Below are positions 1,884 through 56,886 of a DNA stretch of 64,000 nt, piece after piece. The DNA lies in NCBI GenBank assembly GCA_001784435.1, contig MFQZ01000010.1, positions 169,960 to 233,959 on the forward strand, written 5' to 3'. How positions within the stretch are numbered: position 1 is the first letter of the stretch; each line of letters opens with the position of its first letter. The notes below the pieces were generated by a model. The model ran no database searches and was not told the origin of the DNA. It was given only the letters and a program-made list of their open reading frames with translations. Made by a program: the position numbers and the translations under genes. This DNA is from Candidatus Magasanikbacteria bacterium RIFOXYC2_FULL_42_28 (GTDB taxonomy: Bacteria; Patescibacteriota; Patescibacteriia; Magasanikbacterales; GWA2-37-8).

Positions 1884-2273
1884 ATGCCCGAAGAAATTAT
1901 CACCACTAACGAAATTATGGATTTTTTGCGCGAAAATATGGTGATGCGCAAAGATTTTGATGGGTTGAAATCCGATTTTGAAATTGTTAAATCCGATGTG
2001 GCCATCTTGAAATCCGATGTGGCCACGCTTAAATCAGATGTGGCCATCTTGAAATCCGATGTCGCTGAATTGAAAGACAGTATTCGTGAAATAAATTCAC
2101 GTCTCGATCATATTGACAGTGAAATTACCGCAATAAAATCACGTTTAGACGCTTTAGAAAAATCAACTTTTGAAGACGCCAATGTTTATGCCAGCGATAT
2201 TTTGTTGTTAAAAAATAAAATGGCGTCATTAGAACAGCAGTTGGCGCGTCTGCAGGCGCAAGTAGCGCGGTAG
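1884..2273 (+). CDS. small coiled-coil protein with tandem heptad repeats (LKSDVAx)x5
   Basis: Translation shows LKSDFEIVKSDVAILKSDVATLKSDVAILKSDVAELK, encoded by 21-bp tandem DNA repeats. C-terminal region also heptad-like. No TM segment. Confidence 0.6.
   Translation: MPEEIITTNEIMDFLRENMVMRKDFDGLKSDFEIVKSDVAILKSDVATLKSDVAILKSDVAELKDSIREINSRLDHIDSEITAIKSRLDALEKSTFEDANVYASDILLLKNKMASLEQQLARLQAQVAR
1966..2090 (+). repeat. about 6 tandem 21-bp direct repeats (ttgaaatccgatgtggccatc-like) inside the CDS
   Basis: Read directly from sequence; in frame, giving heptad protein repeats. Confidence 0.8.
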
Positions 2274-2294
2274 GTAGTTGTATTCTATACCATC

Positions 2295-5200
2295 ATGAAA
2301 AGGAATTTATCACAAAAATTAAAATTCGCTTTCGCTTGGCTCGCCCCTCGTCGCAAATGGGGCATACTTAGCGTGTCCGCGCTGGCGGTTTTAATTTTTG
2401 CCGGCGTTATCCTTACCACCACTCCGGCCGCGGCGGATGTTCTGGATTATGTTAATCGGGCATTTGCTTGGATTAATTTTGCTGTTTCTCGGTTGTTTTT
2501 ATCACTCGCTCTCTTTTTGCTTACTTTTGTTATTCAAATTGCCGGCTATAACGGCTATATTGATTCGGTGGCGGTCAATGTCGGTTGGGTGATGGTGCGT
2601 GACTTGGTTAATATGGCGTTTGTAATATTTTTATTGGTTATCGCTTTTGGCACGATTTTGGGATTGGAACAATACGAATGGAAAAAGTTAATGGTCAAAT
2701 TTGTTTTGGCCGCTATTTTAGTGAATTTTTCCCGCGTGATTTGCGGACTGATGATAGACGTGGCGCAGGTGTTTATGACCACCTTTGTCAATGGCATCGC
2801 GGCCACGGCCGGCGGTAATTTGATAACGGCTTTTTCGGCTGACAAATTGTATAAATTTAACCCCGATACCAATGGCACCGAAATTAACGATACCGAGTCC
2901 TTTATCGCGAGCATCGCGGCGGTGATGTTCGCCGGCATGATGATGATGACGATGTTTGCCATCGCGGTGATGTTACTCGCGCGTTTGGTCGTGCTGTGGG
3001 TGTTGATTGTTTTGTCGCCCATGGCTTTTGCCTTAAATGTTATCCCCAAAACCGAAAAATACGCCCAAGAATGGTGGCAAGAATTTGGTCAAAATTTAGT
3101 CGCCGGTCCGATTTTAATATTTTTTATCTGGTTATCATTGGTAACCGTGGGCGGGGGCGATGTGGCCAAAGAAATTAGCGCGAACAATGTTGTTAAACAA
3201 GATAACAGCCAACAGCCCAAATCCGGCATTTCTGAAGTAATGGAATGGGAAAACATGGCCAGTTTCGCGATTGCCATCGGGATGTTGCTTGTCGGCGCGA
3301 AAATTACCCAGCAAATGTCCCCGCAAGGTGGACAGTTTGTCGGCAAAGCAGCGGAATTTGGGAAGAAGGTGGCAATGGTGGCGGCCGGAGCGACGACTGC
3401 GAAATGGGGGCTGAAAGCCGGTAAGGCAGCGGGTAAATTTGCTTTAATGGAAATACCTTATGGCGGAAATTTTTGGAAAGCGAAAGCAAAAACTGAATGG
3501 GAAAGCGCGAAAACCGCGATGTATGGTAAGGCCGCCGGTATAACCAAGGAAAGTACGGAATTGAATAATGCTGCTGGGGAAAAGCGAGAAAAAGCACAAT
3601 CATTGCGACAACTTGCGAAAACGGAGACCAATGACGTTAAGAAAAAGAAGTATGAAGAAGCAGCTGCTCTTGCTGAGAAAGAAATGGAAGATCTAGAAGC
3701 TCGGGCGCAAGAAGCAATGGCGCCGAGTCGTTTAAGCAAGCGCGGCAAGGCATTAAAGGCGCAAGCTGCCGCGAAGAAAAAAGAGTCCGAAGATTTGCGA
3801 CAACGGGCCGCGACGGCCACAACACCGGAAGCGCAAGCTGATTTGGAAGTCCAAGCCAAAGTCGCTGATACCGAAGCGACTGAATTGCGACGACAACAAG
3901 AAGAAGAAACCACTCGCGGTGGTGGCGGGATTGTTGGGGCAATAGTTAGACAACGCATCGGCTACATGAAGCAATTAAAAAAATCTGAAGGGCAAAGAGA
4001 AATTCGAGAGAAATTAGCTTTTAAAAGGGCATCTGGTGATTCCGGCGGCTGGATTTTTAATCGGTCGGATGGTCAAGTAAAAGATGCTTATCGTTACGAA
4101 AAAGGCATGTTGGAAGTTGAGGAAATGCGCAGTTCGGCCAAAGACAAAGAATATTCCGCGATTGGTAAATCCGGCGCGTTGGGTATGCGTCGCTATCGTG
4201 ATGGCCGTTTTTTGCCGGGTGCTACTATGGCCGAACAGATCGCTAAACATGGCCGTGGTAGCGCGAGAATGGAAAGTGTTTCCAAAACCATTCAAGCGGC
4301 GACCGAGCTAAAGATTGATTTGGCAGCCAAAGCGAAAATTGATGAAGTTGATGTCGCCAAAGCGGCCTTGGATGTTGGTTTGCAAACAACAGCAGAAAAA
4401 GAATTATTAGCGAAAAAAGCGCAAGCCGAAGAAGACGCGAAGACCGCTCAAGAAAGAATAGAAGCGGAATTCGCGCCGGCGATAACAGCGGCGCAGGTGG
4501 CTATTAATGATCCAAAAGCTGAGTTTAATAAAGATGTGGCAAAAGCGGAGGATGATTTAGTAGATTATAGAAAAAATAAAAAGGTAAACGATATATTGAC
4601 GACTGATGAGCAAACAAGGCAAGCTAATTTGGATAAAGAAGCGGCCGATTTGCAGACTGTTATCCAGAATAGTGAGCTTGCGATGCAAGAAGCATTTAAG
4701 AAATACCAGGAAGAACGTCGGGGAATAACTGACGCAGATGCGTTAAAAACAGCAGATGAAAAATTCAAAACAGACCATGGGAAAAGACAGAAAGAGGTTA
4801 ATGACAAAAAGAATGAACTAGAACAATTAGGTTCAAGGAGAAATAAGACAGCGGCAGAAGAAAAACTTGAGAAAAATTTAGAAGATGCTAAAACTGCCAG
4901 AGAGGCAAAAGGTGCCGAAAATGGGTATGATACTGTAAAAAAAGCTTTGGTAGATAAAGAAACAGAAAAACAAGAAAAATTTGAAAAAGCCAGGACCGGA
5001 ATAGTTGCTGCCCAAAAAGCGATCGATGCTTACACCAAAAAAGATCCAACAACAAAGAAGAGTATCCAAGATACTGACCGTGAAGCAGAATTTAAAGCCG
5101 ACCCGACCACCGGCTCTAAAGATTTTGCGACCAGAGAGGCCGAAGTAAAAGCTAGAAAAGCGGCTTTGGAAGCCAGTTTAAATACTGTTCCCGGCGCCGG

Positions 5201-7058
5201 TGATTTTATGGCCGCGGAACGCGCTACGGCAATGGAAGAACATGCCCACGCTGGTAAATTATCCATGCAAGGCGCGGCTTGGGGGTTAAAGGCAATGCAC
5301 GATGTGTTAACGGCGATTGATTTGGGCGAGCAAGGGAAAAAAGCCGGTGAAGAATTTATTAAAACTATCAAAGATAACCATTTAGCTAACTCTTTTAAAG
5401 CCGCGCGCAAAGAAATTGACGCGGTTATCGATAACTGGAAAAAAGCCGGAACCGGACAAATTAAATTTTTGGATGAAGAGGTGCGCCGTTTGAGTGCGCG
5501 CAATGCTTTTGTGGCCGCTTTGAATTATTCTGAAAAAAGCAAGATCACGGCTAAAGATAAAAACATGCGCGAAGCTCAAGCCGCTGATGTGGCTTCTAAC
5601 GCGGTTGTCAATATTCGCAAAGGCCGAGAATTACCGTCCGAAGCGATTGACGCGCTATATGAGGCCGAAGCCAAAGAATTAAGCGGTATGGAACGCGCGG
5701 ACGCGTCGGCCGCGGCCGCGGACACGATGTTTTATTTAATGGCGCAAAAAGAAGCCGGCCATGAATTATCGGCCGATGAAAAATCTTCGATTATGGGCGC
5801 GTGGACTAAGGTAGATTCAGAATCGTGGAATGATGATTTTGCGGATTATTTTATTCGTATGGTGGGTAGACACGAAAGTGGTGACAAGACCCTGACCGGT
5901 CAAAAAAAGGCCATTGCCGAACAGATGGCTAAATTTGCCAAAGATGCTAATTTGAAGTTTGAAAATGAAGTTGTTAATGGTGTAGAAACCGGCAGGAAAA
6001 AATTTGCCGGCGCGTATAATCGCGAAATGTCATCAATGTGGCAGACACTGGCCGCTACCGGTGGCGATACCAAATTATGGAACGCTCATAATGCCATTAA
6101 TCAAGAAGAAAAAGAAATGGGTAGCACCAAGTTTGATAGCAGTGGTGGCTATTGGGGGGCGGCCGAAAGATTGGCCGCGCGGGGTCAACTGGGTGGTTAT
6201 AGTTCAGTGGCTGAAATGGAAGCGGCTTATGGCCAAAATCAAGATGGTCTTAAATTTGCCGCTCGCAAATTTAAAGCCAATGGTATTGGCAATGGGCATT
6301 GGGAGTCGGTATTAAACCAAGAGTTTGATGATAGAAAAGGTATTTATCGGATTAATACCTTAAATACCGCTCAAGGCGGTTCAATTACGGAGATGGGTAA
6401 ACGCACCTTGAACGAATTACTGAAATTTCAGAATCATTCTGCCGGTGATTTTGATTTGACTACCGGGCTGATGCGCTCAATTGATTCTAATTTGTTCGGC
6501 GCGCTTACTGCCCAGATGAAAACTGAAAATGATGTTAAGTTTATGAATTTTCGTTCCATTATTAAATTGTTGGGTGGTCATGAATCTGAAACCGAACTGC
6601 GCACTTCCCGAGGCGGTAAAGATGGTGCTGATACCTATTATCATTTGGGCGGTGAAAAAATGTTGGGCACATTTATCGATAGGTTTGGAGATACCATGGA
6701 AGCGCGAGATAAAATGGATGAGCACCTGTTGGAGAATTTTATGGTTAAGGAGTTGTTGGGGAATAAAAGCGCGACGATGTTACTTTTACAGCGTACAATG
6801 AAATTGAATGATGATGACACAGCGCATGGAAATTTTAGAATTAAATTTGACGGTTCCATTGGTGAAGTTCAAGGTATTGAGGAATTAGTTAAAAAAGTAG
6901 AGGCGTTAAAAGCACAGGGTCGTCTTACTAGTGTTACTCCGGCAATGTTAAAACAGCTTCAAGATATGTTACCAGATTTTAAATCCGGTGTCATTGCCCA
7001 ATCAGGAGATCGTGGTGGCAAGAAAGACAAGAGTGACTCCACTGATTTTGGCGGATAA
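2295..7058 (+). CDS. giant (1587 aa) membrane protein: N-terminal signal/TM plus about 5-6 TM helices (first ~280 aa), then ~1300 aa highly charged Lys/Glu/Ala/Gln-rich predicted coiled coil and a C-terminal globular region; possibly VirB6/TrbL-like
   Basis: Hydrophobic segments visible in the first 280 residues of the translation; long low-complexity KEAQ-rich stretch. The VirB6/TrbL analogy rests on architecture and T4SS-like neighbours only. Confidence 0.45.
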   Translation: MKRNLSQKLKFAFAWLAPRRKWGILSVSALAVLIFAGVILTTTPAAADVLDYVNRAFAWINFAVSRLFLSLALFLLTFVIQIAGYNGYIDSVAVNVGWVMVRDLVNMAFVIFLLVIAFGTILGLEQYEWKKLMVKFVLAAILVNFSRVICGLMIDVAQVFMTTFVNGIAATAGGNLITAFSADKLYKFNPDTNGTEINDTESFIASIAAVMFAGMMMMTMFAIAVMLLARLVVLWVLIVLSPMAFALNVIPKTEKYAQEWWQEFGQNLVAGPILIFFIWLSLVTVGGGDVAKEISANNVVKQDNSQQPKSGISEVMEWENMASFAIAIGMLLVGAKITQQMSPQGGQFVGKAAEFGKKVAMVAAGATTAKWGLKAGKAAGKFALMEIPYGGNFWKAKAKTEWESAKTAMYGKAAGITKESTELNNAAGEKREKAQSLRQLAKTETNDVKKKKYEEAAALAEKEMEDLEARAQEAMAPSRLSKRGKALKAQAAAKKKESEDLRQRAATATTPEAQADLEVQAKVADTEATELRRQQEEETTRGGGGIVGAIVRQRIGYMKQLKKSEGQREIREKLAFKRASGDSGGWIFNRSDGQVKDAYRYEKGMLEVEEMRSSAKDKEYSAIGKSGALGMRRYRDGRFLPGATMAEQIAKHGRGSARMESVSKTIQAATELKIDLAAKAKIDEVDVAKAALDVGLQTTAEKELLAKKAQAEEDAKTAQERIEAEFAPAITAAQVAINDPKAEFNKDVAKAEDDLVDYRKNKKVNDILTTDEQTRQANLDKEAADLQTVIQNSELAMQEAFKKYQEERRGITDADALKTADEKFKTDHGKRQKEVNDKKNELEQLGSRRNKTAAEEKLEKNLEDAKTAREAKGAENGYDTVKKALVDKETEKQEKFEKARTGIVAAQKAIDAYTKKDPTTKKSIQDTDREAEFKADPTTGSKDFATREAEVKARKAALEASLNTVPGAGDFMAAERATAMEEHAHAGKLSMQGAAWGLKAMHDVLTAIDLGEQGKKAGEEFIKTIKDNHLANSFKAARKEIDAVIDNWKKAGTGQIKFLDEEVRRLSARNAFVAALNYSEKSKITAKDKNMREAQAADVASNAVVNIRKGRELPSEAIDALYEAEAKELSGMERADASAAAADTMFYLMAQKEAGHELSADEKSSIMGAWTKVDSESWNDDFADYFIRMVGRHESGDKTLTGQKKAIAEQMAKFAKDANLKFENEVVNGVETGRKKFAGAYNREMSSMWQTLAATGGDTKLWNAHNAINQEEKEMGSTKFDSSGGYWGAAERLAARGQLGGYSSVAEMEAAYGQNQDGLKFAARKFKANGIGNGHWESVLNQEFDDRKGIYRINTLNTAQGGSITEMGKRTLNELLKFQNHSAGDFDLTTGLMRSIDSNLFGALTAQMKTENDVKFMNFRSIIKLLGGHESETELRTSRGGKDGADTYYHLGGEKMLGTFIDRFGDTMEARDKMDEHLLENFMVKELLGNKSATMLLLQRTMKLNDDDTAHGNFRIKFDGSIGEVQGIEELVKKVEALKAQGRLTSVTPAMLKQLQDMLPDFKSGVIAQSGDRGGKKDKSDSTDFGG

Positions 7059-7085
7059 TAATTTAGATTTCTAGTCAATTTTAGT

Positions 7086-8540
7086 ATGAAAACAAAATTA
7101 TACAATTATCTGTATAATACCGGCGTGCCGATAAATGAGGTGTATACACCTTTATTGGCGTTGGCGAATAAATTTGCTTCGCCGTCGTCGAATAATTTTT
7201 GGCAAACCATTATTACTGTTTCTGATTATATGAAGGCGCGGTACCAAACAGAACAATGGTATCCGGAAAAGATTATTTTTGGTTTAGTAGAGTGGAAAAC
7301 CGCGAGTGATTTAGCCGCGTCTTTGGAGGCGATTGACCGTTTGCTCGCGCGTTCGGGCGTGTCGCTGGTGGACAACACTAAAACACGCGGTAAGTTTATT
7401 GGTTTAGAGTTGAATGATGCCACCTTAAAACATTGGGCCAGCGCTTATGATCTTGCCGATTCGGTTGTTAAAAATCGCGTTGATAGTGAGTTGCCGATAG
7501 CACTATCGCTTTTTGCGCGTCTTAACATTCAATTTCAAACCGTGGGCATGCTCATCAATTTACCGCTTGGCCCGGCTCTTTATTCTAAGGCAGAAGTGAA
7601 TAATTTTGTTAATGTTGGGGGGGCGGACTGTGATTTTGCTCGTTTGGTTTTCACTTTGCGGGAAATGTCAATTACCGATGCTCGCCACGAGGTCTATGTG
7701 ATTGTTAAAGAATTTTTATTAGCCGACCATTGTTTGAATAATGAAAATTTAGAATGGGAACAGGCGGTCTTATTGGTTTGGTCTTTGGGATTTATGTTTA
7801 ATGAATTTGAACGTTTGTCCTCCGAAGACCAGATTTGGTTAATCAATAATTATTATTATCGAGCGTTTGCGATTGGCGTGCCTTTAAAAATAATTTTACA
7901 ATCATACCTTCTATCATCGCGTTGGGTAGTTGAATATGTGCGGAAATGTTCGGCTTTAATTTTAAATATTGAGAATAATTCTGAAAATGTTTATTTTGGC
8001 GGTGAAGAAAATAATTCTGCCTTTGGTTTAATCAGCGCCGAATATCACCGTCGATTAGCGGACAAAATATCCGAGGGGCTGTCGGATCAAACTGTGGCCG
8101 AGGCCTTTGTTGCCGGTTTATTTGGCGGTGGATACGACGAGAGCGCGCCCACGTATTATCATTGGCTACAAGAAGCGTTAATAGTATACGTCGGCTTGAA
8201 AGAATCGACTTTGGTGGATTGGCTGAAAGATGGCGACTCACCGTTAAATTATGAAAATCGCGGAGAGTTGATCAAATTGTTGACTTATTTTGTTTATGGC
8301 GGAGAGTTTGTCAAGTTGGTGGAATATTTCCAAGATAAAAAATCAAAAGTTCCATTTAAAATATTTTTAAATTATATAAAAGACGCTGTTGATTTGTCGG
8401 TTGACGTGATTATTCAGAATTGTCTAGCGTTTGCCGAAGTGATGCGCGACAATGGTTTGCTATCTTCGGACGATGACCTAATCGAATATCACCAGGAGGA
8501 TGGCCAATTTTATTGGAATAAAAAATTGTTAAAACAGTAA
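7086..8540 (+). CDS. hypothetical soluble protein, paralog of the next gene
   Basis: Shared segments: LSSEDQIWLINNYYYRAFAIGVPLKIIL here versus LSSETQIELIKKFTLKALCWGVPLDKVL in the 8544 gene. Tightly linked, same strand. Confidence 0.5.
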   Translation: MKTKLYNYLYNTGVPINEVYTPLLALANKFASPSSNNFWQTIITVSDYMKARYQTEQWYPEKIIFGLVEWKTASDLAASLEAIDRLLARSGVSLVDNTKTRGKFIGLELNDATLKHWASAYDLADSVVKNRVDSELPIALSLFARLNIQFQTVGMLINLPLGPALYSKAEVNNFVNVGGADCDFARLVFTLREMSITDARHEVYVIVKEFLLADHCLNNENLEWEQAVLLVWSLGFMFNEFERLSSEDQIWLINNYYYRAFAIGVPLKIILQSYLLSSRWVVEYVRKCSALILNIENNSENVYFGGEENNSAFGLISAEYHRRLADKISEGLSDQTVAEAFVAGLFGGGYDESAPTYYHWLQEALIVYVGLKESTLVDWLKDGDSPLNYENRGELIKLLTYFVYGGEFVKLVEYFQDKKSKVPFKIFLNYIKDAVDLSVDVIIQNCLAFAEVMRDNGLLSSDDDLIEYHQEDGQFYWNKKLLKQ

Positions 8541-8543
8541 ATT

Positions 8544-9722
8544 ATGTCGGCATTTTATTTTTTACAATCATCTAGTCCGGAGACGTGGAAACAACGCGTC
8601 GATTTGTTGATAAGAATTGGGATGATAGCCGACGATTTATTTTTGGGGAAATGGGAGAATGATTCTGTCTGGGGCTGGTCAAAATTTTTAGTAGCTGATT
8701 TGGCAAAATTTAATAAAGAAAAGATTCCGTCTGATTGGCGGTATCAGTCGTTTTTTTACGCGTTGGTTGGTTTTTTGGATTTTTCTCTACTTGAAAAAAT
8801 TACCAATGAGTTGGATAAGTTGGCGCGTATTAAAATTGGCCCGGCATCAAAGGGGGCGACAATCATTAGTACTGTTTCTGAAGAATGGAACGCTTTGGGT
8901 GATTTTTTGGATTTGACACCAGCTGGCGGGGGTATTTTGAGGAACAAAGTAAGCGGATTAACGGCCGTTGAATTAGAAAAATTAACAGCCGATATGCGTG
9001 TGTTAGCGGATGATTATAATGATTTTCGCATTGTTTTTAAATTTGTGGCGACCGCGTTGCTTTATCATATTCCGCCCGTGCCGGCAGTTGATTTGGATGG
9101 TTTTAAATATGCTGTGTCGGTTCAAGCCGAACAGAAAAAAAATGATTTTAGTATTGATCACGGATTGCTTTGCACTAATTTTTTAGGGTGGTCGTTTTTA
9201 AAGCGGGATGAAAAAGTGATGCGTTGGGCCGCGGAATATCTGCGACAGTTTTCCGTCGAATCGATTAAATATGATAGTCCGTTTGATTTGATTTTTTTAA
9301 TTGGTATTTTACATTTAGCTTTTTATAATTTTACCGGATTATCATCTGAAACACAGATTGAGCTGATTAAAAAATTTACTCTGAAAGCGCTCTGTTGGGG
9401 GGTGCCGCTAGACAAAGTGTTGTTATCCAAGTCGGGCGAAGGATTGTCTGTCGCCACCGGCCCAAAAAATACGAGAGCGCTGTTTACTGCTTTAGAAAAT
9501 AGTGAGGAGACAATGAATTTTGGTTCTGATAAAGTTTTAATGAATGTTGGGCAATTTGTTAAGCAATTTTTATTGTCGGCTCATCGTGATTATGGGGGAT
9601 ACGCGCAGACCGAATATGTTGGAGACGCGATCAGAGAAAATCATTGGCCAGATGGCGCGCGTGTTTATTTATTCGCACTTTTAAAATGTTGTTTATATTT
9701 AAAAGCCGGCAGTTCCGCTTGA
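8544..9722 (+). CDS. hypothetical soluble protein, paralog of the 7086 gene
   Basis: See the previous feature; 4-nt intergenic gap. Confidence 0.5.
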   Translation: MSAFYFLQSSSPETWKQRVDLLIRIGMIADDLFLGKWENDSVWGWSKFLVADLAKFNKEKIPSDWRYQSFFYALVGFLDFSLLEKITNELDKLARIKIGPASKGATIISTVSEEWNALGDFLDLTPAGGGILRNKVSGLTAVELEKLTADMRVLADDYNDFRIVFKFVATALLYHIPPVPAVDLDGFKYAVSVQAEQKKNDFSIDHGLLCTNFLGWSFLKRDEKVMRWAAEYLRQFSVESIKYDSPFDLIFLIGILHLAFYNFTGLSSETQIELIKKFTLKALCWGVPLDKVLLSKSGEGLSVATGPKNTRALFTALENSEETMNFGSDKVLMNVGQFVKQFLLSAHRDYGGYAQTEYVGDAIRENHWPDGARVYLFALLKCCLYLKAGSSA

Positions 9723-9806
9723 AGTCAATTGGTGTTGTATCGCTTTAAAATATGGTAAACAGCAATTAGTCCGCTATTTTATTAAAAAAATCCACCCGCA
9801 CCATTT

Positions 9807-9899
9807 AAAACCTTTTAAGCATCCTTAAAAGGTTTTGTAAAAATAGGGTATGGCAGACGCGATTAGATACTTGACAGCGATGTGGTTAAATGTTACAAT
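9807..9899 (+). promoter_or_regulatory. copy 1 of palindrome+promoter element: aaaaccttttaag-catc-cttaaaaggtttt inverted repeat followed by TTGACA-N17-TACAAT
   Basis: Inverted repeat at 9807-9838; -35 TTGACA at 9871-9876 and -10 TACAAT at 9894-9899, read directly. Related copies at 11341 and 13074. Confidence 0.5.
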
Positions 9900-9932
9900 A
9901 ATAGGTATATATATACTTATAAATGTAAACTT

Positions 9933-11330
9933 ATGGAAATCTCGCTTATTTTAGAGGAAATTACTCGACAGAATAAGTTCTGGGCGCGAGAAAAACAGCG
10001 TGATTTTTTTGGTAATAATACGTTTAAACGTGAATTGTACCCACGGCTTGTCGCTTTACTGACCGATCGGCTAATTATTTCGATCGTTGGATTGCGACGT
10101 GTTGGTAAAACAGTTTTACTCAAACAATTAATTGGGCATTTGATAGATAATGACAAAGTTGAACCGCGCAATATTTTATTTTTAAGTTTTGATGAAGCGA
10201 TGCTGAGTTCGGCTGTCAAACTCGACGATTACTTGCGGATTTATTTAAGCCATTTTCAGGCGCGACGCACCGGGCGTTTGTATATTTTTTTAGATGAAAT
10301 TCAATATGCGCCCGAGTGGCAACATATTTTAAAACGATTTTATGACACCGAACCGAATATTAAATTTATTATTTCCGGTTCGTCCTCGCTTTTTTTAAAA
10401 AAGAAAGCGACCGAAAGTTTAGTTGGTCGGATTTATGAATTTAATTTACCGGTATTAAGCTTTGTGGAATATTTGGAATTGGCCCAAGTTTTTTCCGCCA
10501 ACTTGTCAATTTTTAAATCTTTGCTATGTGATATCAAGGCGGGATCGAAAGATTGGTTGAAATTAGACGTCGCCAGAAAGATTTTTTTGTCCGAGCATTC
10601 ACTTTGGTTGGCCGGACAATTTGATGAATATTTACTACGTGGACAATTTCCCGAAGTGGTAGGCGAAAAAGATATTGTTAAAATTGAAAGATATTTACGT
10701 GAATCAGTTTATAAAAAAACCATTGAATTTGATATCCCACGGTTATTTGGCGCTGATAAGGTTGGTGATTTAAAATTTATTTTTCAAGTCCTGGTTAACG
10801 AAACAGGTAATCAGTTTGAAGTTGGCAATCTGGCCCAAGAGGCGCAGATCGATCAAAAAACTCTTACTCGCTATTTATCTTTTTTTGAAGAAAGTTTGTT
10901 GGCGCGGATTTTATATAACTATTCGCGCTCATTGCGTAAAACCCATCGCCAGCCCAAGAAGATTTATATTAGTAGTACTAATTTTTATCCGTTGGACTTG
11001 GCTACGCCGCTTGAAACCCGCGGTGCAATTTTGGGGCATTTAGCTGAAACGCATGCCTGCAATTTATTGCGAGCGCGTTTTGATAATTTATCATTTTATC
11101 GTGTGCGGAAACAGGAAGTTGATTTTATTGGAGCGGACAACTGGTTGGATCGGTCATCCTATCGCTTAATTGAAGTAAAATATCGGTCTGATGTCAGTCG
11201 ACAAAGGTTTGTGTTTTTGGAAAATACCGCTAAGCGTTTTGGTGTTGGTCGGTTGCCGGTGGTTTTAACAAAATATGAATTTGGCGTTTCAGAAAAATTA
11301 GCGTTGGTGCCGTTATTTATGATAAAGTAA
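9933..11330 (+). CDS. AAA+ ATPase of the COG1373/DUF4143 type (Walker A GLRRVGKT, Walker B IFLDEIQ)
   Basis: Motifs visible in the translation. Start moved from the track's 9882 to the ATG at 9933 (MEISLILEE) because the promoter -10 ends at 9899. Confidence 0.6.
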   Translation: MEISLILEEITRQNKFWAREKQRDFFGNNTFKRELYPRLVALLTDRLIISIVGLRRVGKTVLLKQLIGHLIDNDKVEPRNILFLSFDEAMLSSAVKLDDYLRIYLSHFQARRTGRLYIFLDEIQYAPEWQHILKRFYDTEPNIKFIISGSSSLFLKKKATESLVGRIYEFNLPVLSFVEYLELAQVFSANLSIFKSLLCDIKAGSKDWLKLDVARKIFLSEHSLWLAGQFDEYLLRGQFPEVVGEKDIVKIERYLRESVYKKTIEFDIPRLFGADKVGDLKFIFQVLVNETGNQFEVGNLAQEAQIDQKTLTRYLSFFEESLLARILYNYSRSLRKTHRQPKKIYISSTNFYPLDLATPLETRGAILGHLAETHACNLLRARFDNLSFYRVRKQEVDFIGADNWLDRSSYRLIEVKYRSDVSRQRFVFLENTAKRFGVGRLPVVLTKYEFGVSEKLALVPLFMIK

Positions 11331-11340
11331 TACTAAGTGT

Positions 11341-11451
11341 TTTTAAGTACATTTAAAAGGTTTTGAAAAAATAGGGGAGTTTTTGGGCATAAAGAGTTAT
11401 CCACAGAGGTAGTTTGACATTTTTAACTGTTTTAAGTATACTTAAAACATA
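11341..11451 (+). promoter_or_regulatory. copy 2 of palindrome+promoter element (degenerate palindrome, TTATCCACAG box, TTGACA-N17-TATACT, palindromic ttttaagtatacttaaaa over the -10)
   Basis: TTATCCACAG at 11397-11406, -35 at 11414-11419, -10 at 11437-11442. The perfect palindrome ttttaagtatacttaaaa at 11431-11448 is a candidate operator. Confidence 0.5.
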
Positions 11452-11477
11452 GCATAAAAATATGAAATGTTTTAAGT

Positions 11478-12692
11478 ATGTTTAAAGAATATATCAAAAG
11501 AGAGGTTTATGTTAATAAAATTCGTCCTTTTATCGGCAAGGATATTATTAAGGTTTTAGTTGGCCATAGACGGGTCGGTAAGAGTTATTTGTTGTATCAG
11601 ATAATGGATGAAGTCAAAAACCAAGATTCAAAAATAGAGATTGTGTATATTAATAAGGAGTTAAATGATTTTGCCGATATTGTTGATCATCAGAGCTTGC
11701 TTAAATATATTGATTTAAAAAAAAATAAAAATAGTGGCGGAAAAACCGCGCTATTTATCGACGAAGTGCAGGACATTATTAATTTTGAAAAGGCCCTGCG
11801 TCACCTAAACGCCTCCGGGCAGTTTGATATTTATTGTACAGGCAGTAATGCTAAATTGTTATCAGGCGAGTTGGCGACTTTTTTGTCCGGTCGGTATATA
11901 GAAGTTGAAGTGCGCGGTTTGTCGTACAATGAATTCTTGGAATTTCATAAATTGGCAAAAGGTAAAGAATCTCTATTTCGTTATATTAAATATGGCGGTT
12001 TACCATATTTAATTAATTTACCACCGGAAGACGATGCCGTGTATGATTATTTGCGCAACATTTATAACACTATCGTTTTAAAAGATGTGGTCGAGCGTTT
12101 TAGATTAAGGAATGTAAATTTGCTGGAAAGATTGATTGAATATCTTGCGGATAATGTTGGTAGTTTGGTTTCAGCCAATAATATCAGTGATTTTTTAAAA
12201 TCGCAAAAAATTAAAATTTCACCGAATACCATTTTAAATTATCTGTCATATTTGGCGGCGAGTTATTTTATTTATAAAGTTCCGCGGCTAGATATTGTGG
12301 GAAAGAAAATTTTTGAGGTTAATGATAAATTTTATTTTGAGGATTTAGGATTAAGGCATGTGGTGGTTAATTACAAACAATCGGATATTAATAAAATTTT
12401 AGAAAATTTAGTGTTTTCGCATTTGAAATATATTGGTTATGAGGTTAAGGTCGGCCAATTGGGCCAGCAGGAAATTGATTTTGTAGCAAGCCGGGGTGAG
12501 GCGCGGGTTTATGTGCAAGTGGCTTACTTGCTAAATAGCGAGGCGGTCAAGCAACGAGAGTTTGGCAATTTATTAAAAATTGATGATAATTATAAAAAAA
12601 TAGTGGTGAGTATGGATGATTTTGGCGGGGGGAATGTTAGCGGTATCGAGCAGTGGAATGTCGTAGATTTTTTATGTGATTTTCTCGGGTAG
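11478..12692 (+). CDS. second AAA+ ATPase of the COG1373/DUF4143 type (Walker A GHRRVGKS, Walker B LFIDEVQ)
   Basis: Motifs in the translation; paralogous architecture to the 9933 gene. Confidence 0.6.
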   Translation: MFKEYIKREVYVNKIRPFIGKDIIKVLVGHRRVGKSYLLYQIMDEVKNQDSKIEIVYINKELNDFADIVDHQSLLKYIDLKKNKNSGGKTALFIDEVQDIINFEKALRHLNASGQFDIYCTGSNAKLLSGELATFLSGRYIEVEVRGLSYNEFLEFHKLAKGKESLFRYIKYGGLPYLINLPPEDDAVYDYLRNIYNTIVLKDVVERFRLRNVNLLERLIEYLADNVGSLVSANNISDFLKSQKIKISPNTILNYLSYLAASYFIYKVPRLDIVGKKIFEVNDKFYFEDLGLRHVVVNYKQSDINKILENLVFSHLKYIGYEVKVGQLGQQEIDFVASRGEARVYVQVAYLLNSEAVKQREFGNLLKIDDNYKKIVVSMDDFGGGNVSGIEQWNVVDFLCDFLG

Positions 12693-12716
12693 AATTAAAA
12701 TAATTATGAATTTATT

Positions 12717-12962
12717 ATGAAAACTATAATAGAAATAGACCGAAAGCAAGATGAAGTAATCCGCCTTCACTTATCCAATGACGACTATGATGATTTTGGC
12801 TGGATAGACATGTGGACGACCAAAGAAAAAGAGGGGGATGAGCCGGAGCAGAGTGAAACCGTGAATTTTTTCATTGACGATTTACGCGCGGCTCTAGAAG
12901 GATTTGTGGCGCAAAGAGAGTTGCAACATAAGCGAGATCAGATGTTGAAAGAAAATGAGTAG
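12717..12962 (+). CDS. small acidic hypothetical protein (81 aa)
   Basis: ORF only; no motif recognised. Confidence 0.35.
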   Translation: MKTIIEIDRKQDEVIRLHLSNDDYDDFGWIDMWTTKEKEGDEPEQSETVNFFIDDLRAALEGFVAQRELQHKRDQMLKENE

Positions 12963-12989
12963 ACAAGTTGATAATTTTGAGATTTAATT

Positions 12990-13075
12990 TTTGGCAATAC
13001 TGTGCTATAATATATCCATGACCAATAATGCTTCACCGACAATTTTAGTCAAAAAATCCGACGGCACGTTCACAA
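12990..13075 (+). repeat. about 85-bp duplicate of the promoter and first ~20 codons of the gene at 14619 (copy at 14610-14695)
   Basis: gctataatatatccatgaccaataatgcttcaccgacaattttagtcaaaaaatccgacggcac versus ggtataatatacctatggacaataataccaaacaaccaacaattttagtcaaaaaatccgacggcac, read directly. The upstream copy runs into the palindromic element and a stop. Confidence 0.75.
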
Positions 13076-13178
13076 AACCTTTTAAGCACCCTTAAAAGGT
13101 TTTGTAAAAATAGGGGAAATTTTAAGTATAAAGTTATCCACAGCACCGTTTGACTTATCAGTGTTATTTTGGTAAATT
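13074..13178 (+). promoter_or_regulatory. copy 3 of palindrome+promoter element (perfect aaaaccttttaag-cacc-cttaaaaggtttt, TTATCCACAG, TTGACT-N17-TAAATT)
   Basis: Palindrome at 13074-13105; TTATCCACAG at 13134-13143; -35 at 13150-13155. Confidence 0.5.
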
Positions 13179-13197
13179 AGCACAATATACTAATTTT

Positions 13198-13782
13198 ATG
13201 AAATGGATTGATTTTGAGAAAAGTATTAAAGATAAAGATATTAAGTTATTTACACCGCGCGATGTAAGTGTTTTTTTGGGTCGCTCAACAATTGCTGTGC
13301 GATTTTTAATGCATCGCCTAAAACAAAACGGACAAATTATGGGGGTTAAGCGCGGTCTTTATAAATTATCCGGTCAACTCGTACCTGATTATTATTTGGC
13401 TAATAGAATTTACGCTCCCTCCTATATTTCTTTAGAATCGGCGTTGTCATATTATGGTGTTATTCCGGAAACCGTATATGAAATTACGTCAGTAACTTCT
13501 AAAATTACTCGTCGTTTTGAAACCGCCGGAAAAATTTTTTCTTATCATAAAATTAAACAATCTGCTTTTACCGGTTATGGTATAGCGCACCAAGACGGAG
13601 CAAATTTTTATTTGGCTGACGCGGAAAAAGCGTTTATAGATGTGTGTTATCTGCGGTTATTGGCGGGCCGAGAGTCGATATCTCGTTTTGACAAAACAAA
13701 GCTTAATAAGGAGAAAACTTTAAGTTATGCTGATTTGTATAAAAATAAAAAATTAGTTGCGACTATTCGTAAATTATTATGA
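13198..13782 (+). CDS. abiEi: AbiEi-like antitoxin/transcriptional regulator (type IV TA, COG5340-like)
   Basis: About 195 aa with an N-terminal wHTH-like region and SLESALSYYGVI segment. It overlaps the downstream AbiEii-like gene by 4 nt. Start taken at 13198, downstream of the promoter; the track gives TTG at 13150. Confidence 0.5.
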   Translation: MKWIDFEKSIKDKDIKLFTPRDVSVFLGRSTIAVRFLMHRLKQNGQIMGVKRGLYKLSGQLVPDYYLANRIYAPSYISLESALSYYGVIPETVYEITSVTSKITRRFETAGKIFSYHKIKQSAFTGYGIAHQDGANFYLADAEKAFIDVCYLRLLAGRESISRFDKTKLNKEKTLSYADLYKNKKLVATIRKLL

Positions 13783-14540
13783 TTACCAAAGATTATATTG
13801 AGAAATTAGCAAAGCTTGGCCATGTTGCAACATTTCCAAATATCGCGAGAGAGTATTTTCAGCATGTTTTTTTGTCAAATTTAAGTCAGATTCCTGGTGG
13901 GGAAAAGTTATTGTTTAAGGGTGGTACGGCCTTGCGAATAGTTTATGGTAGTCCGCGTTTTTCCGAAGATTTAGACTTTTCTTTGTTCGGCGTCTCGCAC
14001 TCGCTCGTTAATAAATTTGTGGAAGATATTTTTCTGAAGATTTTATCTGAAATTGAAAGGACTGGGATTAAGGTTGAATTGGGTAAAAAAAGCGGAGAAA
14101 CAAGCGGCGGATATTTTGGTGTGGCATCGTTTCGGTTCTATGATTATCCTTTGATTGGCGTTGAGATCAATGTATCCGCGCGAGGAACCAAGCAGTTGGC
14201 CGGGGAAGCAGATAGTATCGTTAGCGATTTTGCGCCGGCGTATTCGTTATTGCATTTACCGCAAATTGTTTTGGTTGAAGAAAAAATATTTGGCGCTTTA
14301 CTGGAACGCAAAAAACCACGTGATTTTTATGATTTGTATTTTATTATGCGCAAAGGAATGCTAACGAATGAGCAGAAACAGCGATTATCAACGGTCAAAA
14401 ATAAAATAATCGCGAGTGCCAAGAAGATCGATTTTCGATATGAACTCGGTGTTTTTTTACCTTCTGACCAGCAATTGATTGTACGGGATTTTTCAGCAGT
14501 TTTAGAGCGGGAGTTAAATAGACAATTAGCAAAAATCTGA
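13779..14540 (+). CDS. abiEii: AbiEii-like nucleotidyltransferase toxin (DUF1814 family)
   Basis: N-terminal LLFKGGTALRIVYGSPRFSEDLDFS matches the family's conserved GGTAL / RFSEDxDF signature as I recall it. Size about 250 aa; operon overlap with the upstream antitoxin. Confidence 0.65.
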   Translation: MITKDYIEKLAKLGHVATFPNIAREYFQHVFLSNLSQIPGGEKLLFKGGTALRIVYGSPRFSEDLDFSLFGVSHSLVNKFVEDIFLKILSEIERTGIKVELGKKSGETSGGYFGVASFRFYDYPLIGVEINVSARGTKQLAGEADSIVSDFAPAYSLLHLPQIVLVEEKIFGALLERKKPRDFYDLYFIMRKGMLTNEQKQRLSTVKNKIIASAKKIDFRYELGVFLPSDQQLIVRDFSAVLERELNRQLAKI

Positions 14541-14618
14541 TGATTTTATAATTTTTGCAATTAAGTAAAATAATATTCGCACCGGCACCAAATATTTGAT
14601 TAGGTAATTGCGTCTATT

Positions 14619-15665
14619 TTGTGGTATAATATACCTATGGACAATAATACCAAACAACCAACAATTTTAGTCAAAAAATCCGACGGCACCTTCGCGCGGA
14701 TGTCTTTGGGGGAGATAAAAAAGATGAAAGTGGGTAAAATTACAGCACCGTCGTCTGTCATCCTGAATGAAATGAAGGATCCCTTGAAGTTGGCAGTAAG
14801 GGATTCTTCGGTCGCTACGCTTCCTCAGAATGACAATAACAAAAAAGTCGGAATGACAGGTAAAGACGCCAAGTCGCTTTTAGAAGAAGACAAATTGGTA
14901 GCCCCGGGCACGAGCGTTGCCGTTGGCCGAAATAATCAGGTGGACACGGTAATTAAAAAACTATCATTTTCCGTCGCGTCTAATTTTTTCAATCGTTTGC
15001 GGAGCGCGATTCAGTTGCGTTTAAAAGATGTACGCGGGGAAAAAGAAACACGCGCCACGGTGTTGCGTTCTATAAAAGACGGGGGACTGGGCTTGACTGA
15101 AACCCAAGCCAACGAATTGGAGCAAGTGTGCGCGACGGTGGGTAATTTATTGGCGCGACCACCGGCTAAAAGTAAAACTGATTTAATGGTTGAAGATCAA
15201 ATTTTACCGCAAACGTTTCACAAAATGCCTGTGCCGGCGAAAATGGCTCCACATAACGCGTTTGTGCATGAGGAATTTTTAAAAAAAGAAGAAAAATTTA
15301 AAATTAGTCCAGTGGCTGTTAGCCGACCGGCGATGAAGGATGTGGTTGCCGCCGCCGCGCCGGTCGGGCCGGTGGAGGAAATTAAATTTTTTACCCTAAC
15401 TGATTTTCGGCGTTTGGCCCAAGACCCTAACCAAGCCACCAAACGTTTGGCGCAAAAATTTATTAATTTGCGTGAAGAATCAGTTTTGTTATTTTGGCAG
15501 GCCTTGGATGCCTGGAAGCAAAGCCCGTTATTTGCCGACTATGTTGGTGTATTAAATCGAGTTTTTATCGGTAAAGTCGCGTCTGATCAGCAAAAAACGA
15601 GTGACCAGATAACCGATGTTGAGATAAAGGCGCTTATCGCGATGGAAAAAGATTTGGTAATCTGA
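14619..15665 (+). CDS. hypothetical protein (348 aa); its promoter and 5' end are duplicated upstream of the AbiE cassette
   Basis: ORF only; no motif recognised. Confidence 0.4.
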   Translation: MWYNIPMDNNTKQPTILVKKSDGTFARMSLGEIKKMKVGKITAPSSVILNEMKDPLKLAVRDSSVATLPQNDNNKKVGMTGKDAKSLLEEDKLVAPGTSVAVGRNNQVDTVIKKLSFSVASNFFNRLRSAIQLRLKDVRGEKETRATVLRSIKDGGLGLTETQANELEQVCATVGNLLARPPAKSKTDLMVEDQILPQTFHKMPVPAKMAPHNAFVHEEFLKKEEKFKISPVAVSRPAMKDVVAAAAPVGPVEEIKFFTLTDFRRLAQDPNQATKRLAQKFINLREESVLLFWQALDAWKQSPLFADYVGVLNRVFIGKVASDQQKTSDQITDVEIKALIAMEKDLVI

Positions 15666-15677
15666 TATAATAATGTT

Positions 15678-16106
15678 ATGGAGCAATTTACCGTCCCACA
15701 ATTTTTAGATGTTGAAGATAAAATTTTTGGCCCGATTACCACGCGCCAATTTGTGATTTTGCTCGCCACCGGTTTATTTCTGTTTATTGCTTACAAATTG
15801 GCTGATTTTGCGTTGTTTATCACTCTGTTCGTATTTATTGGCGGATTTGCCGTAATTTTGGCGTTTGTTAAAATTAACGGCCAGACCTTCCATTATTTTT
15901 TACTGAATATAATTCAAACCATGCGTCGCCCCAGCCGCCGGTTGTGGCAGAAACGTTATACCGACCAAGAATTAAAAGCAATGGCCGCCGGACCGAAAAA
16001 AGAAATGTTAGAGGCGCCGTCTCCTATTCCCAATCTTTCCAATAGCCGCATTCGCGCCTTGTCGCTCGTCGTTAATACCGGTGGATATTTTAAATATGAA
16101 GAATAA
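15678..16106 (+). CDS. small 2-TM membrane protein, PrgI/VirB3-like candidate
   Basis: 142 aa with two hydrophobic helices (LLATGLFLFIAYKL..., LFITLFVFIGGFAVILAFV). Sits immediately upstream of a VirB4-like ATPase, as PrgI/TcpE do in Gram-positive T4SS. Assignment is by context and architecture. Confidence 0.35.
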   Translation: MEQFTVPQFLDVEDKIFGPITTRQFVILLATGLFLFIAYKLADFALFITLFVFIGGFAVILAFVKINGQTFHYFLLNIIQTMRRPSRRLWQKRYTDQELKAMAAGPKKEMLEAPSPIPNLSNSRIRALSLVVNTGGYFKYEE

Positions 16107-16782
16107 AGCTGTCGCCAAAAAGAAAGTCGCTTTGATATCCGCGCAAAAACATTTGTTTATCGCGGAAATTAAGCAAGATACGGTGATTTTAAAAGACGGC
16201 ACTTTGCGCGCGGTTTTAATGGTGTCCAGTTTGAACTTTGCGTTGAAAAATGAAGACGAGCAAACCGCGATTGTCTCATCGTATGTTGGCTTTTTAAATT
16301 CACTTGATCATCCTTTGCAAATTTTAATTCAGTCACGCGAACTTTATATTAAACCGTATTTAGACGATTTAGCCAAACATGAACATGAACAAACTAACGA
16401 ACTATTGCGCACGCAAATCGCCGATTATCGGTCATTTGTGTCGGAGTTGGTTGAGCTCGGACAAATTACCAGCAAACAATTTTATGTGGTTGTGCCCTAT
16501 GATCCTTTGAGTAATAAAAAACGCAGTTTTTGGTCGCGGGCACAGGAAGTATTGAATCCGATTTCGGCCGTAAAATTAAAAGATGAGAAATTTTTACAAC
16601 GCAAATATGATTTAGATCAGCGAGTGCGTTTGGTAGAGTCAGGGTTGTCCAGTATGGGGTTGGAAGTGAAACGGCTTGATACCCAAACTTTGATTGAATT
16701 GTATTTTTCGTCGTATAATCCGGATATTGCTTTAAGTGAACATTTGCCGGAAATTAATAAAATTCAGGTAGAAGAAGAATAG
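16081..16782 (+). CDS. hypothetical soluble protein in the T4SS-like operon (possibly a split-off N-terminal VirB4 domain)
   Basis: Overlaps the upstream gene and ends 1 nt before the ATPase gene. The VirB4-like ATPase downstream lacks the long N-terminal domain of canonical VirB4. Confidence 0.3.
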   Translation: MDILNMKNKAVAKKKVALISAQKHLFIAEIKQDTVILKDGTLRAVLMVSSLNFALKNEDEQTAIVSSYVGFLNSLDHPLQILIQSRELYIKPYLDDLAKHEHEQTNELLRTQIADYRSFVSELVELGQITSKQFYVVVPYDPLSNKKRSFWSRAQEVLNPISAVKLKDEKFLQRKYDLDQRVRLVESGLSSMGLEVKRLDTQTLIELYFSSYNPDIALSEHLPEINKIQVEEE

Positions 16783-18661: not shown

Positions 18662-19261
18662 ATGCTTCCACTTCGCACCCGCATTTTCATAATCATCAGT
18701 TTAGTGGTTCTGGTAGTTCTGGGTATTAGTGTGTTGGTCTCGGTTTTAAGTAACCGTGAACCATCGGCGCCCACGACCGAGACGCCCGATTCGGTCGTTG
18801 ATTTGCCGGCCGGGACAGTGCTGTATAATGGTGCACCAGTGGTAGTGTCCCCAATAGAAAACGGTTTAACTCCACCGCCCGCACTCACTACTTTAGAGGC
18901 CGAACAAAACAGCGTCCGTCAATTGGCGCGGATTTTTACCATTCGTTATAATTCTTATTCCACGGATGCTAATTATCAAAATATTCGTGAAGTGCAGAGT
19001 TTGGTAACGGACAATTTATGGGCGCAAATTAGCAAACCACTCGCCGGTAACAGCGTTAGCGCCAATTTTTTGGGCGTTACTACCAATGTTATTGGCACGG
19101 AATTATTGTCCTGGGGAAGTGACGTCGCGGTTGTGGCCGTAAAAACCACTTCGGTGCAAGATAAAAATGGAGTAGAAAGTAATTTAGCGCGTAGTGGCAC
19201 GGTGAATTTGGTTAAGACCGACGGTCAATGGTTGGTAGATAAATTTGCATGGGAGAAATGA
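18662..19261 (+). CDS. bitopic membrane protein (N-terminal TM plus ~150-aa extracytoplasmic domain), VirB8-like candidate
   Basis: N-terminal IFIIISLVVLVVLGISVLVSVL helix. Its size and topology match VirB8-type proteins, but no motif was verified. Confidence 0.25.
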   Translation: MLPLRTRIFIIISLVVLVVLGISVLVSVLSNREPSAPTTETPDSVVDLPAGTVLYNGAPVVVSPIENGLTPPPALTTLEAEQNSVRQLARIFTIRYNSYSTDANYQNIREVQSLVTDNLWAQISKPLAGNSVSANFLGVTTNVIGTELLSWGSDVAVVAVKTTSVQDKNGVESNLARSGTVNLVKTDGQWLVDKFAWEK

Positions 19262-19273
19262 CATTCGATTCGT

Positions 19274-19309
19274 TTGTCATTCCCGTGAAAATGGGAATCC
19301 AGTCGTCAA
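19274..19309. repeat. TGTCATT-family palindromic element (ttgtcattcccgtgaaaatgggaatccagtcgtcaa)
   Basis: Near-identical copy at 61844-61879: ctgtcattcccgcgaaagcgggaatccagtcgtcaa. It overlaps the likely comFC start codon. Confidence 0.7.
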
Positions 19310-54422: not shown

Positions 54423-54433
54423 TAATTATTTGT

Positions 54434-56197: not shown

Positions 56198-56198
56198 T

Positions 56199-56882: not shown

Positions 56883-56886
56883 GAGT

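Follow-up and report, generated by a model that had tools for sequence, protein, structure and literature searches.

Genes g2 to g4 of a Magasanikbacteria-like genome are predicted to form the upstream half of a chromosomal type IV secretion locus with an extended VirB6-type subunit

Within a 64,000-nucleotide window of contig MFQZ01000010.1 (Candidatus Magasanikbacteria bacterium RIFOXYC2_FULL_42_28; the window is the whole stretch of DNA analyzed here, and positions are counted from its first letter), four consecutive genes at positions 1884 to 9722, g1 to g4, had been described in an initial annotation as an operon that might encode a surface or attachment apparatus. Comparison with related loci indicates that three of these genes, g2 to g4, are the upstream half of a chromosomal type IV secretion system (T4SS) locus and not a separate surface-protein operon. 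We consider it likely, with a probability of roughly 0.8, that they belong to a Patescibacteria-type (monoderm, MPF-FATA-like) T4SS of a Magasanikbacteria-like (ABY1) genome, in which the long tail of g2 would serve as a cytoplasmic platform.

Gene order carries this reading. Scanning one genome per species yielded 80 further loci, nearly all from Magasanikbacteria where a lineage was given, in keeping with the small-genome patescibacterium that had been supposed from the sequence. Open reading frames (ORFs) in these loci came from a simple ORF caller, in which single starts and a few splits may be wrong, and distant relatives of g3, g4, and the C-terminal domain (CTD) of g2 were recovered from genomic loci with iterated hidden Markov models. 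The order in related loci is an extended virB6 gene, one or two genes of the family of g3 and g4 (hereafter M genes), a gene of the W348 family, and then the genes for PrgI/VirB3, TrsD, VirB4, a VirB8-like protein, and ComF. On the ORF maps, 84 loci carry a VirB6-like gene; the W348 gene is reached in 64 of them, and all 64 have M genes, one copy in 48 and two in 16, where a long copy typically precedes a short one, as in g3-g4. PrgI, TrsD, and VirB4 follow downstream in 60 of the 64, and a ComF-family gene terminates the conserved locus in the window and in 31 related loci. In locus L003, for example, the g2 orthologue is also 1587 aa long (48% identity over the full length), and together with the orthologues of g3 (53%) and g4 (41%) it runs contiguously, without insertion, into W348, PrgI/VirB3, TrsD, VirB4 (79%), the 199-aa w199 protein, and ComF. 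The suspected link to the downstream T4SS module is borne out by these relatives, in which g2, g3, and g4 lie directly upstream of W348-PrgI-TrsD-VirB4. The four-gene operon itself, which the initial annotation had made dependent on synteny in relatives, held only in part: g2 to g4 are syntenic and run straight into T4SS genes, and g1, almost never present in related loci, is not. The features of the window that concern this locus are as follows.

1 to 1715, + strand: C-terminal end of a giant upstream protein, open at the left window edge (the "548-aa" ORF)
1884 to 2273, + strand: g1, coiled-coil protein of 129 aa
1989 to 2062, + strand: tandem repeat in g1, unit of 21 nt, 3.5 copies, 85% matches, coding for exact heptads
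2295 to 7058, + strand: g2, 1587 aa, extended VirB6-like T4SS membrane subunit
2352 to 3314, + strand: polytopic membrane domain of g2 (aa ~20 to 340), eight hydrophobic segments, VirB6/DotA-like fold
3945 to 4304, + strand: conserved module of ~115 aa in g2 (aa ~551 to 670), 68 to 74% identity to the L003 orthologue
4392 to 5294, + strand: variable charged helical region of g2 (aa ~700 to 1000), 16 to 38% identity to L003
5292 to 7004, + strand: C-terminal globular domain (CTD) of g2 (aa ~1000 to 1570), predicted local distance difference test (pLDDT) score of >90
7086 to 8540, + strand: g3, 484 aa, "long" paralog of the soluble M family
8544 to 9722, + strand: g4, 392 aa, "short" paralog of the M family
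9723 to 14618, + strand: insertion with two AAA_14/DUF4143 ATPases (PADLOC PDC-S01), an 81-aa ORF, and AbiEi/AbiEii
14637 to 15665, + strand: W348-family soluble protein, directly upstream of PrgI in 64 loci
15678 to 16106, + strand: PrgI/VirB3-like protein
16081 to 16782, + strand: TrsD/TraC-like protein, akin to the VirB4 N-terminal region
16784 to 18646, + strand: VirB4 ATPase with TraG P-loop domain
18662 to 19261, + strand: bitopic 199-aa protein (w199 family), N-terminal transmembrane (TM) segment and weak CaMKII_AD match
19249 to 20007, + strand: ComF-family protein, last gene of the conserved locus

The four + strand ORFs lie where they had been placed; the intervals g1-g2, g2-g3, and g3-g4 measure 21, 27, and 3 nt, within the 3 to 30 nt first reported. 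The T4SS block of the window matches PF19044 (E value, 5e-29), PF12666 (3.4e-11), and NF041427 TrsD (4e-8), and it contains VirB4 with TrsD and PrgI/VirB3 adjacent, the arrangement of a Patescibacteria or MPF-FATA-like locus. A split VirB4 gene at 16081 to 16782 and 16784 to 18646 was ruled out, as the first ORF is a separately conserved TrsD. The large ORFs scanned in the 64-kb window include neither a relaxase nor a coupling protein (small ORFs and the remaining genome lay outside the search), and no VirB2-like pilin array was identified within the window.

The second product, g2, is well supported as a polytopic T4SS membrane subunit of the VirB6 type, of the "extended-VirB6" kind, and is no longer the anonymous membrane anchor of the first description. 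A hydropathy scan locates eight hydrophobic segments at residues 20 to 340, which are helices in the AlphaFold2 (AF2) model, and at least five hydrophobic helices are expected of VirB6/TrbL proteins; the hydrophilic tail of about 1,250 aa comes after them, so that the reported combination of a polytopic membrane part with a long charged extension stands. Two of the three best matches of the g2 model among Protein Data Bank (PDB) folds are of the VirB6/DotA type. The Pfam TrbL/VirB6 family (PF04610) was matched by 4 of 32 family members (best E value, 1.9e-4) and was the sole Pfam family matched by more than one of the 32. For g2 itself, NCBIfam returned a weak match to the CD3337/EF1877 mobilome membrane protein (E value, 1e-3; 17.8 bits against a cutoff of 120), and PHROGs and PADLOC returned nothing specific. 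PF19590, precomputed on two distant g2 homologues, is a family that we take, unconfirmed, to be TrbL-like. Searches of PDB sequences with the N and C termini of g2, and with profiles A3 and A5, gave chance or compositional matches only. Homologues of residues 1 to 420 come from Magasanikbacteria and related Patescibacteria, and a profile of these matched 23,491 clusters in a library of 1.8 billion proteins; the best 150 of the 23,491 are mostly 900 to 2,100 aa long, and the shorter ones include known partial sequences. On the ORF maps, nearly every family member is extended: of 71 VirB6-like ORFs that are complete, 68 reach at least 900 aa, and the median of the 71 is 1,142 aa.

With VirB6/TrbL subunits (TrwI of R388 and Agrobacterium tumefaciens VirB6, the PrgH/CD3337 type of monoderms, and the DotA type of IVB systems), g2 shares the multi-helix membrane domain and a gene position next to VirB3 and VirB4. 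It differs in having about eight hydrophobic segments instead of five or six, in falling below curated profile thresholds, and in carrying about 1,250 extra aa. The topology of A. tumefaciens VirB6, as quoted in PMC7648143, agrees with the predicted cytoplasmic C terminus of g2, and its outside N terminus agrees as well if TM1 of g2 is a cleaved signal peptide. Extended VirB6 proteins combine a membrane domain with a large hydrophilic domain, here the tail of about 1,250 aa, and the very large hydrophilic C-proximal region likens g2 to those of Rickettsiales (Anaplasma VirB6-3 and VirB6-4) and to TraG of the F plasmid (PMC7648143 and the available part of PMC12857230). In contrast to the Rickettsiales proteins, g2 belongs to a monoderm host and has a single copy per locus, and its tail is free of tandem repeats (Tandem Repeats Finder [TRF] reported only trivial repeats of 6 to 10 nt). 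The g2 tail also terminates in a globular domain that is conserved, has invariant polar residues, and exists as a separate gene too; the tail is predicted to be cytoplasmic and not surface exposed, as is reported for the C termini of Anaplasma VirB6-3 and VirB6-4. On sequence grounds, a surface-exposed, tandem-repeat C terminus of the Rickettsiales type is not predicted for g2.

The tail contains 14% Ala, 11% Lys, 10% Glu, and 8% Gly and no Cys, and at 4.3% Gln it is not the Gln-rich sequence it had been called. Identity between g2 and its L003 orthologue rises and falls along the protein: 42 to 88% in the membrane domain (residues 51 to 350), low and gapped in a linker (400 to 550), 68 to 74% in a conserved island (551 to 650), 16 to 38% in the charged helical region (700 to 1000), and 50 to 92% in the C-terminal region (1000 to 1587). 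The module of about 115 aa (consensus ...DRxExGxLEAExxRSxAKT...RxKDGK...AEQIAxH) occurs in more than 60 of the 171 proteins collected, several of which have two or more copies, and P0127, P0135, and P0129 are among its carriers; in most members of the family it comes after the membrane domain. Because AF2 models it with low confidence, the module may fold only on a partner. Across residues 541 to 1587, modeled from 50 family sequences with a mean pLDDT of 75.6, AF2 places separate helices of 15 to 60 residues, those of 40 to 60 residues at ~766 to 930, followed by a mixed alpha/beta globular domain of about 560 aa (~1010 to 1565) with a pLDDT of >90. The C-terminal globular part that had been predicted is thereby recovered, and the extraordinarily long coiled coil is not: by a heptad heuristic, 176 residues of g2 are heptad-like against 168 ± 60 in shuffles, and no continuous heptad register over hundreds of residues was found in the g2 tail.

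The CTD appears to be under functional constraint, as indicated by its identity peak to L003 (92%, above the 88% peak of the membrane domain), its invariant residues, and its high model confidence. Across 73 distinct sequences, D1180, H1335, K1369, and R1420 are invariant, D1181 is kept in 98%, G1110 and G1512 in 97 to 98%, and H1381 in 91%. No match to the domain was obtained in Pfam, PDB sequences, or PDB folds, and a homologue search for it found a single protein, the word-index search used being insensitive for such families. Given the invariant D-D/H/K/R set, the CTD may be an enzyme or a ligand binder. According to the CTD profile, a full domain ends the VirB6 protein in about 30 loci. 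At least 14 loci show it divided at profile positions ~200 to 235, with the first part closing VirB6 and the remainder opening the following ORF, which is 630 to 760 aa long. The split falls at the same place in locus L005 (1232 + 346 aa), and in L001 the whole CTD resides on a separate 934-aa protein after a 533-aa VirB6. None of 16 stand-alone CTD forms has a hydrophobic N terminus.

Averaged over 137 family representatives and g2, the net charge is +4.7 at the N terminus, -3.3 in the last loop, and +6.9 in the 60 residues that follow the last TM segment. Because of this charge bias and of the signal-less split CTD forms, we predict that the g2 tail is cytoplasmic; the same two observations disfavor the surface or attachment role proposed for the tail at the outset.

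The proteins encoded between VirB6 and the T4SS block form families of their own. A direct BLASTP comparison of g3 and g4 gives an E value of 2e-8 with 33% identity over 81 aa only, which upholds their description as divergent paralogs; profiles seeded with each also align at 100% probability, a circular result, since their members overlap. Together with the synteny, this supports g3 and g4 well as old paralogs of a soluble family always located between virB6 and the W348-virB3-trsD-virB4 block. Comparison of g3 and g4 with Pfam, NCBIfam, PHROGs, and PADLOC returned nothing specific, and PDB sequences gave chance or compositional matches only; a database search for homologues of g3 yielded one protein, again with a word-index search insensitive for such families. 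Alignments of the M family with W348, the CTD, and w199 in hhalign showed no relationship. The w199 protein is a candidate VirB8-like subunit because it combines an N-terminal TM segment, present in all 39 w199 relatives found, with a weak match to CaMKII_AD (E value, 7.6e-4), a family that we take to be NTF2-like. This candidacy is in line with reports of VirB8 homologues in Patescibacteria almost solely from ABY1.

Patescibacterial T4SSs have been described with VirB4, TrsD, PrgI, and VirB6, and those of ABY1 also with comF; a relaxase is missing from most clusters, and homologues of the coupling protein (T4CP) are rare near virB4 (Quinonero-Coronel et al. 2025, available part of PMC12102498). 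The locus in the window resembles these systems and that of Southlakia (Wang et al. 2023, PMC10633639) in being chromosomal, in its VirB4, TrsD, PrgI/VirB3, and VirB6 genes, in the ABY1-type association with comF, and in having no relaxase or T4CP nearby. The available part of PMC12102498 gives no account of the VirB6 extension, the CTD, g3/g4, W348, or the upstream giant protein and leaves unannotated neighbors in gray, and in a 2025 review extended VirB6 is treated as a recognized class in which the role of the extra domains is unexplained (available part of PMC12857230). Several features of the present loci were not found in those parts of the two papers: a VirB6 extension in nearly all Magasanikbacteria, a CTD that is conserved, has invariant polar residues, and is repeatedly split, the upstream giant, and the families of g3/g4 and W348. 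By analogy with known systems, the VirB6 domain would oligomerize in the cytoplasmic membrane as a central platform or channel that docks VirB3, VirB4, and TrsD, and the bitopic w199 protein would be part of the same membrane platform. The tail of about 1,250 aa would remain in the cytoplasm, where its ~115-aa module and CTD, joined by the products of g3, g4, and the W348 gene, may serve as an integral platform for substrate recruitment or regulation. Such a platform would stand in for a coupling protein, which is missing near virB4 in these systems.

Several points weigh against this reading. g2 itself has no Pfam match and reaches no curated TrbL/VirB6 threshold. The roles proposed for the CTD, g3/g4, and W348 derive from where the genes lie, how conserved they are, and how they are fused or split, and the topology derives from the positive-inside rule and a crude hydropathy scan. 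Consensus scans of the window gave 72 promoter-like sites, compared with 50.7 ± 5.7 in shuffles, and 29 terminator-like sites, compared with 24.3 ± 5.1; both are too near the shuffle counts to define operons and were not used for that. Finally, the extended C termini of the Anaplasma proteins and of F-plasmid TraG are located outside the cytoplasm (PMC7648143).

The last point bears on an alternative that we regard as unlikely, namely, that the tail or its CTD is outside the cytoplasm, as a surface adhesin or host contact, or is a built-in effector that is cleaved and delivered by the T4SS, with the split CTDs as substrates. The C termini of Anaplasma VirB6-3 and VirB6-4 are accessible to trypsin on intact cells, and release of extended VirB6 C termini into target cells has been proposed (PMC7648143). 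Stand-alone CTDs without Sec signals suit T4SS substrates equally well as cytoplasmic proteins, the invariant D-D/H/K/R residues hint at an enzyme, a giant and presumably surface protein is encoded just upstream, and patescibacterial T4SSs are thought to act on the host. However, the segment after the last TM is strongly basic throughout the family and the preceding loop is acidic, and a fused domain would need cleavage, for which no protease or cleavage motif was identified. Peak conservation of the CTD, above that of the membrane domain, would also be unusual for a host-facing or effector domain, and the variable helical region would be better suited to such a role. A bolder version, which we regard as a long shot, makes the CTD a new enzyme fold, tethered to or released from the VirB6 channel and delivered by the T4SS into the host, with g3/g4 as chaperones or adaptors. 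If true, it would amount to a "self-loaded" secretion channel, would give extended VirB6 a concrete function, and would provide a candidate host-manipulating effector in Patescibacteria.

It is improbable, in our assessment, that the locus is instead a DNA-uptake (ComB-like) or DNA-handling machine in which the g2 tail and g3/g4 handle nucleic acid together with ComF. The ComB system of Helicobacter is a T4SS for DNA uptake that includes a VirB6 homologue. The ComF-family gene at the end of the locus, in the window as in the 31 related loci, fits such a machine, as do the lack of a relaxase or coupling protein among the large ORFs of the window and the common presence of comF, recG, and radA in ABY1 T4SS loci (available part of PMC12102498). 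On the other hand, g2, g3, and g4 showed no DNA-binding domain, adjacency to comF may merely reflect a shared operon position, and the essentiality of the Southlakia T4SS was judged independent of ComEC (available part of PMC12857230).

The distance of about 6 kb between the originally proposed operon and the T4SS-like module arises because of a lineage-specific insertion of defense and toxin-antitoxin genes. This insertion, of about 4.9 kb (9723 to 14618), separates g4 from the W348 gene; in relatives the gap between the last M gene and W348 has a median of 4.5 nt and a maximum of 834 nt, a value exceeded in none of the 64 comparable loci. Two inserted ATPases match the PADLOC candidate system PDC-S01 with E values of 1e-55 and 2e-144, and from such matches the inserted genes are identified as a mini defense island (two PDC-S01 ATPases and AbiE) that splits the T4SS locus after g4. 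The AbiE cassette is flanked by a duplication of about 75 nt (13001 to 13071 and 14620 to 14693, 83 to 95% identical) comprising the 5' part of the W348 gene, with the sigma-70-like -10 box (TGTGnTATAAT), the ATG, and ~19 initial codons. To judge from its sequence, this repeated W348 5' end resembles a target duplication. Because the -10 box of the W348 gene ends 7 nt before the ATG at 14637, the sequence suggests a leaderless transcript and a start at this ATG and not at the TTG at 14619. Four copies of a 54-nt palindrome-containing element (AAAACCTTTTAAG...CTTAAAAGGTTTT) are present (9813 to 9866, 11341 to 11394, 11430 to 11483, and 13080 to 13133), each just upstream of an inserted gene, and the element could be a terminator, an operator, or the end of a mobile cassette. 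Loci L004 and L018 hold a different, small insertion, with a 63-aa ORF and an NYN-domain protein, at the same junction. The junction between the M genes and W348 would therefore seem to be a recurrent insertion site. A defense island can thus insert in the middle of such a T4SS locus and leave a duplicated W348 5' end.

That g1 to g4 are a self-contained surface or attachment operon unrelated to the nearby T4SS, the alternative left by the initial annotation, is effectively excluded, being contradicted by synteny: although g4 and the T4SS genes of the window are 4.9 kb apart, across a stretch that has strong promoter-like sites of its own, and none of the four proteins matches a curated family, this stretch is an insertion seen in only one of 65 loci and accompanied by the W348 5'-end duplication, g2 has a VirB6/DotA fold, the g3/g4 family is present in all 64 loci long enough, always between virB6 and W348-PrgI, and nearly all relatives lack g1.

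Upstream of g2, the coiled-coil character of g1 is confirmed: the heptad heuristic marks 110 of its 129 residues as heptad-like (9 ± 16 in shuffles), four near-exact LKSDVAx heptads are present, and TRF detects a 21-nt DNA unit repeated 3.5 times at 1989 to 2062. Relatives of g1 upstream of the extended virB6 gene were found only in L070 and L072 among 86 loci, and these share the C-terminal motif LEK.T.ED...DI..LK with it; in L003, a tRNA-like sequence, judged by eye only, takes its place. Searches of Pfam, NCBIfam, PHROGs, and PADLOC gave unspecific coiled-coil matches only. Thus, g1 resembles small tandem-heptad coiled-coil proteins in its heptads over about 110 residues and its unspecific coiled-coil-family matches, and it differs in belonging to no specific family and in having just the two motif-sharing relatives. 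It is well supported, by comparison of these loci, as a sporadic small coiled-coil gene and not a core T4SS part.

Farther upstream, the ORF at 1 to 1715 encodes the C-terminal end, rich in Cys, of a giant protein; relatives of this protein measure 2,300 to 2,800 aa. In 35 of the 51 loci with enough upstream DNA, the extended virB6 gene is closely preceded by an ORF longer than 1,500 aa, and this giant may be a surface protein with a role alongside the T4SS. In locus L059, a single ORF of 3,573 aa (2438 to 13159, + strand) has its VirB6 domain at residues ~2521 to 2825; it may be the upstream giant fused to VirB6 or an artifact of ORF calling or assembly.

The remaining window is ordinary chromosome, with genes for L10, MreB, SecA, and a tRNA synthetase. 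It also encodes a 1000-aa Type ISP-like restriction-modification enzyme (48371 to 51373, + strand; N6_Mtase and Type_ISP_C), a Big_5 and Peptidase_C39-like protein (44098 to 46041), and an HlyD/MacB-type module (54395 to 58110).

The T4SS of Southlakia is essential for epibiotic growth (PMC10633639). With such a system essential in the one species tested and with no recognizable coupling protein or relaxase, the Magasanikbacteria loci offer natural experiments on the cargo of patescibacterial T4SSs, on the way substrates are recruited, and on the role of the extra VirB6 domains, as the CTD is fused to VirB6, split at the same point, or separate depending on the species. The invariant, candidate catalytic residues of the CTD, together with the soluble partner families that are always encoded next to it (g3/g4 and W348), would be concrete targets for study.

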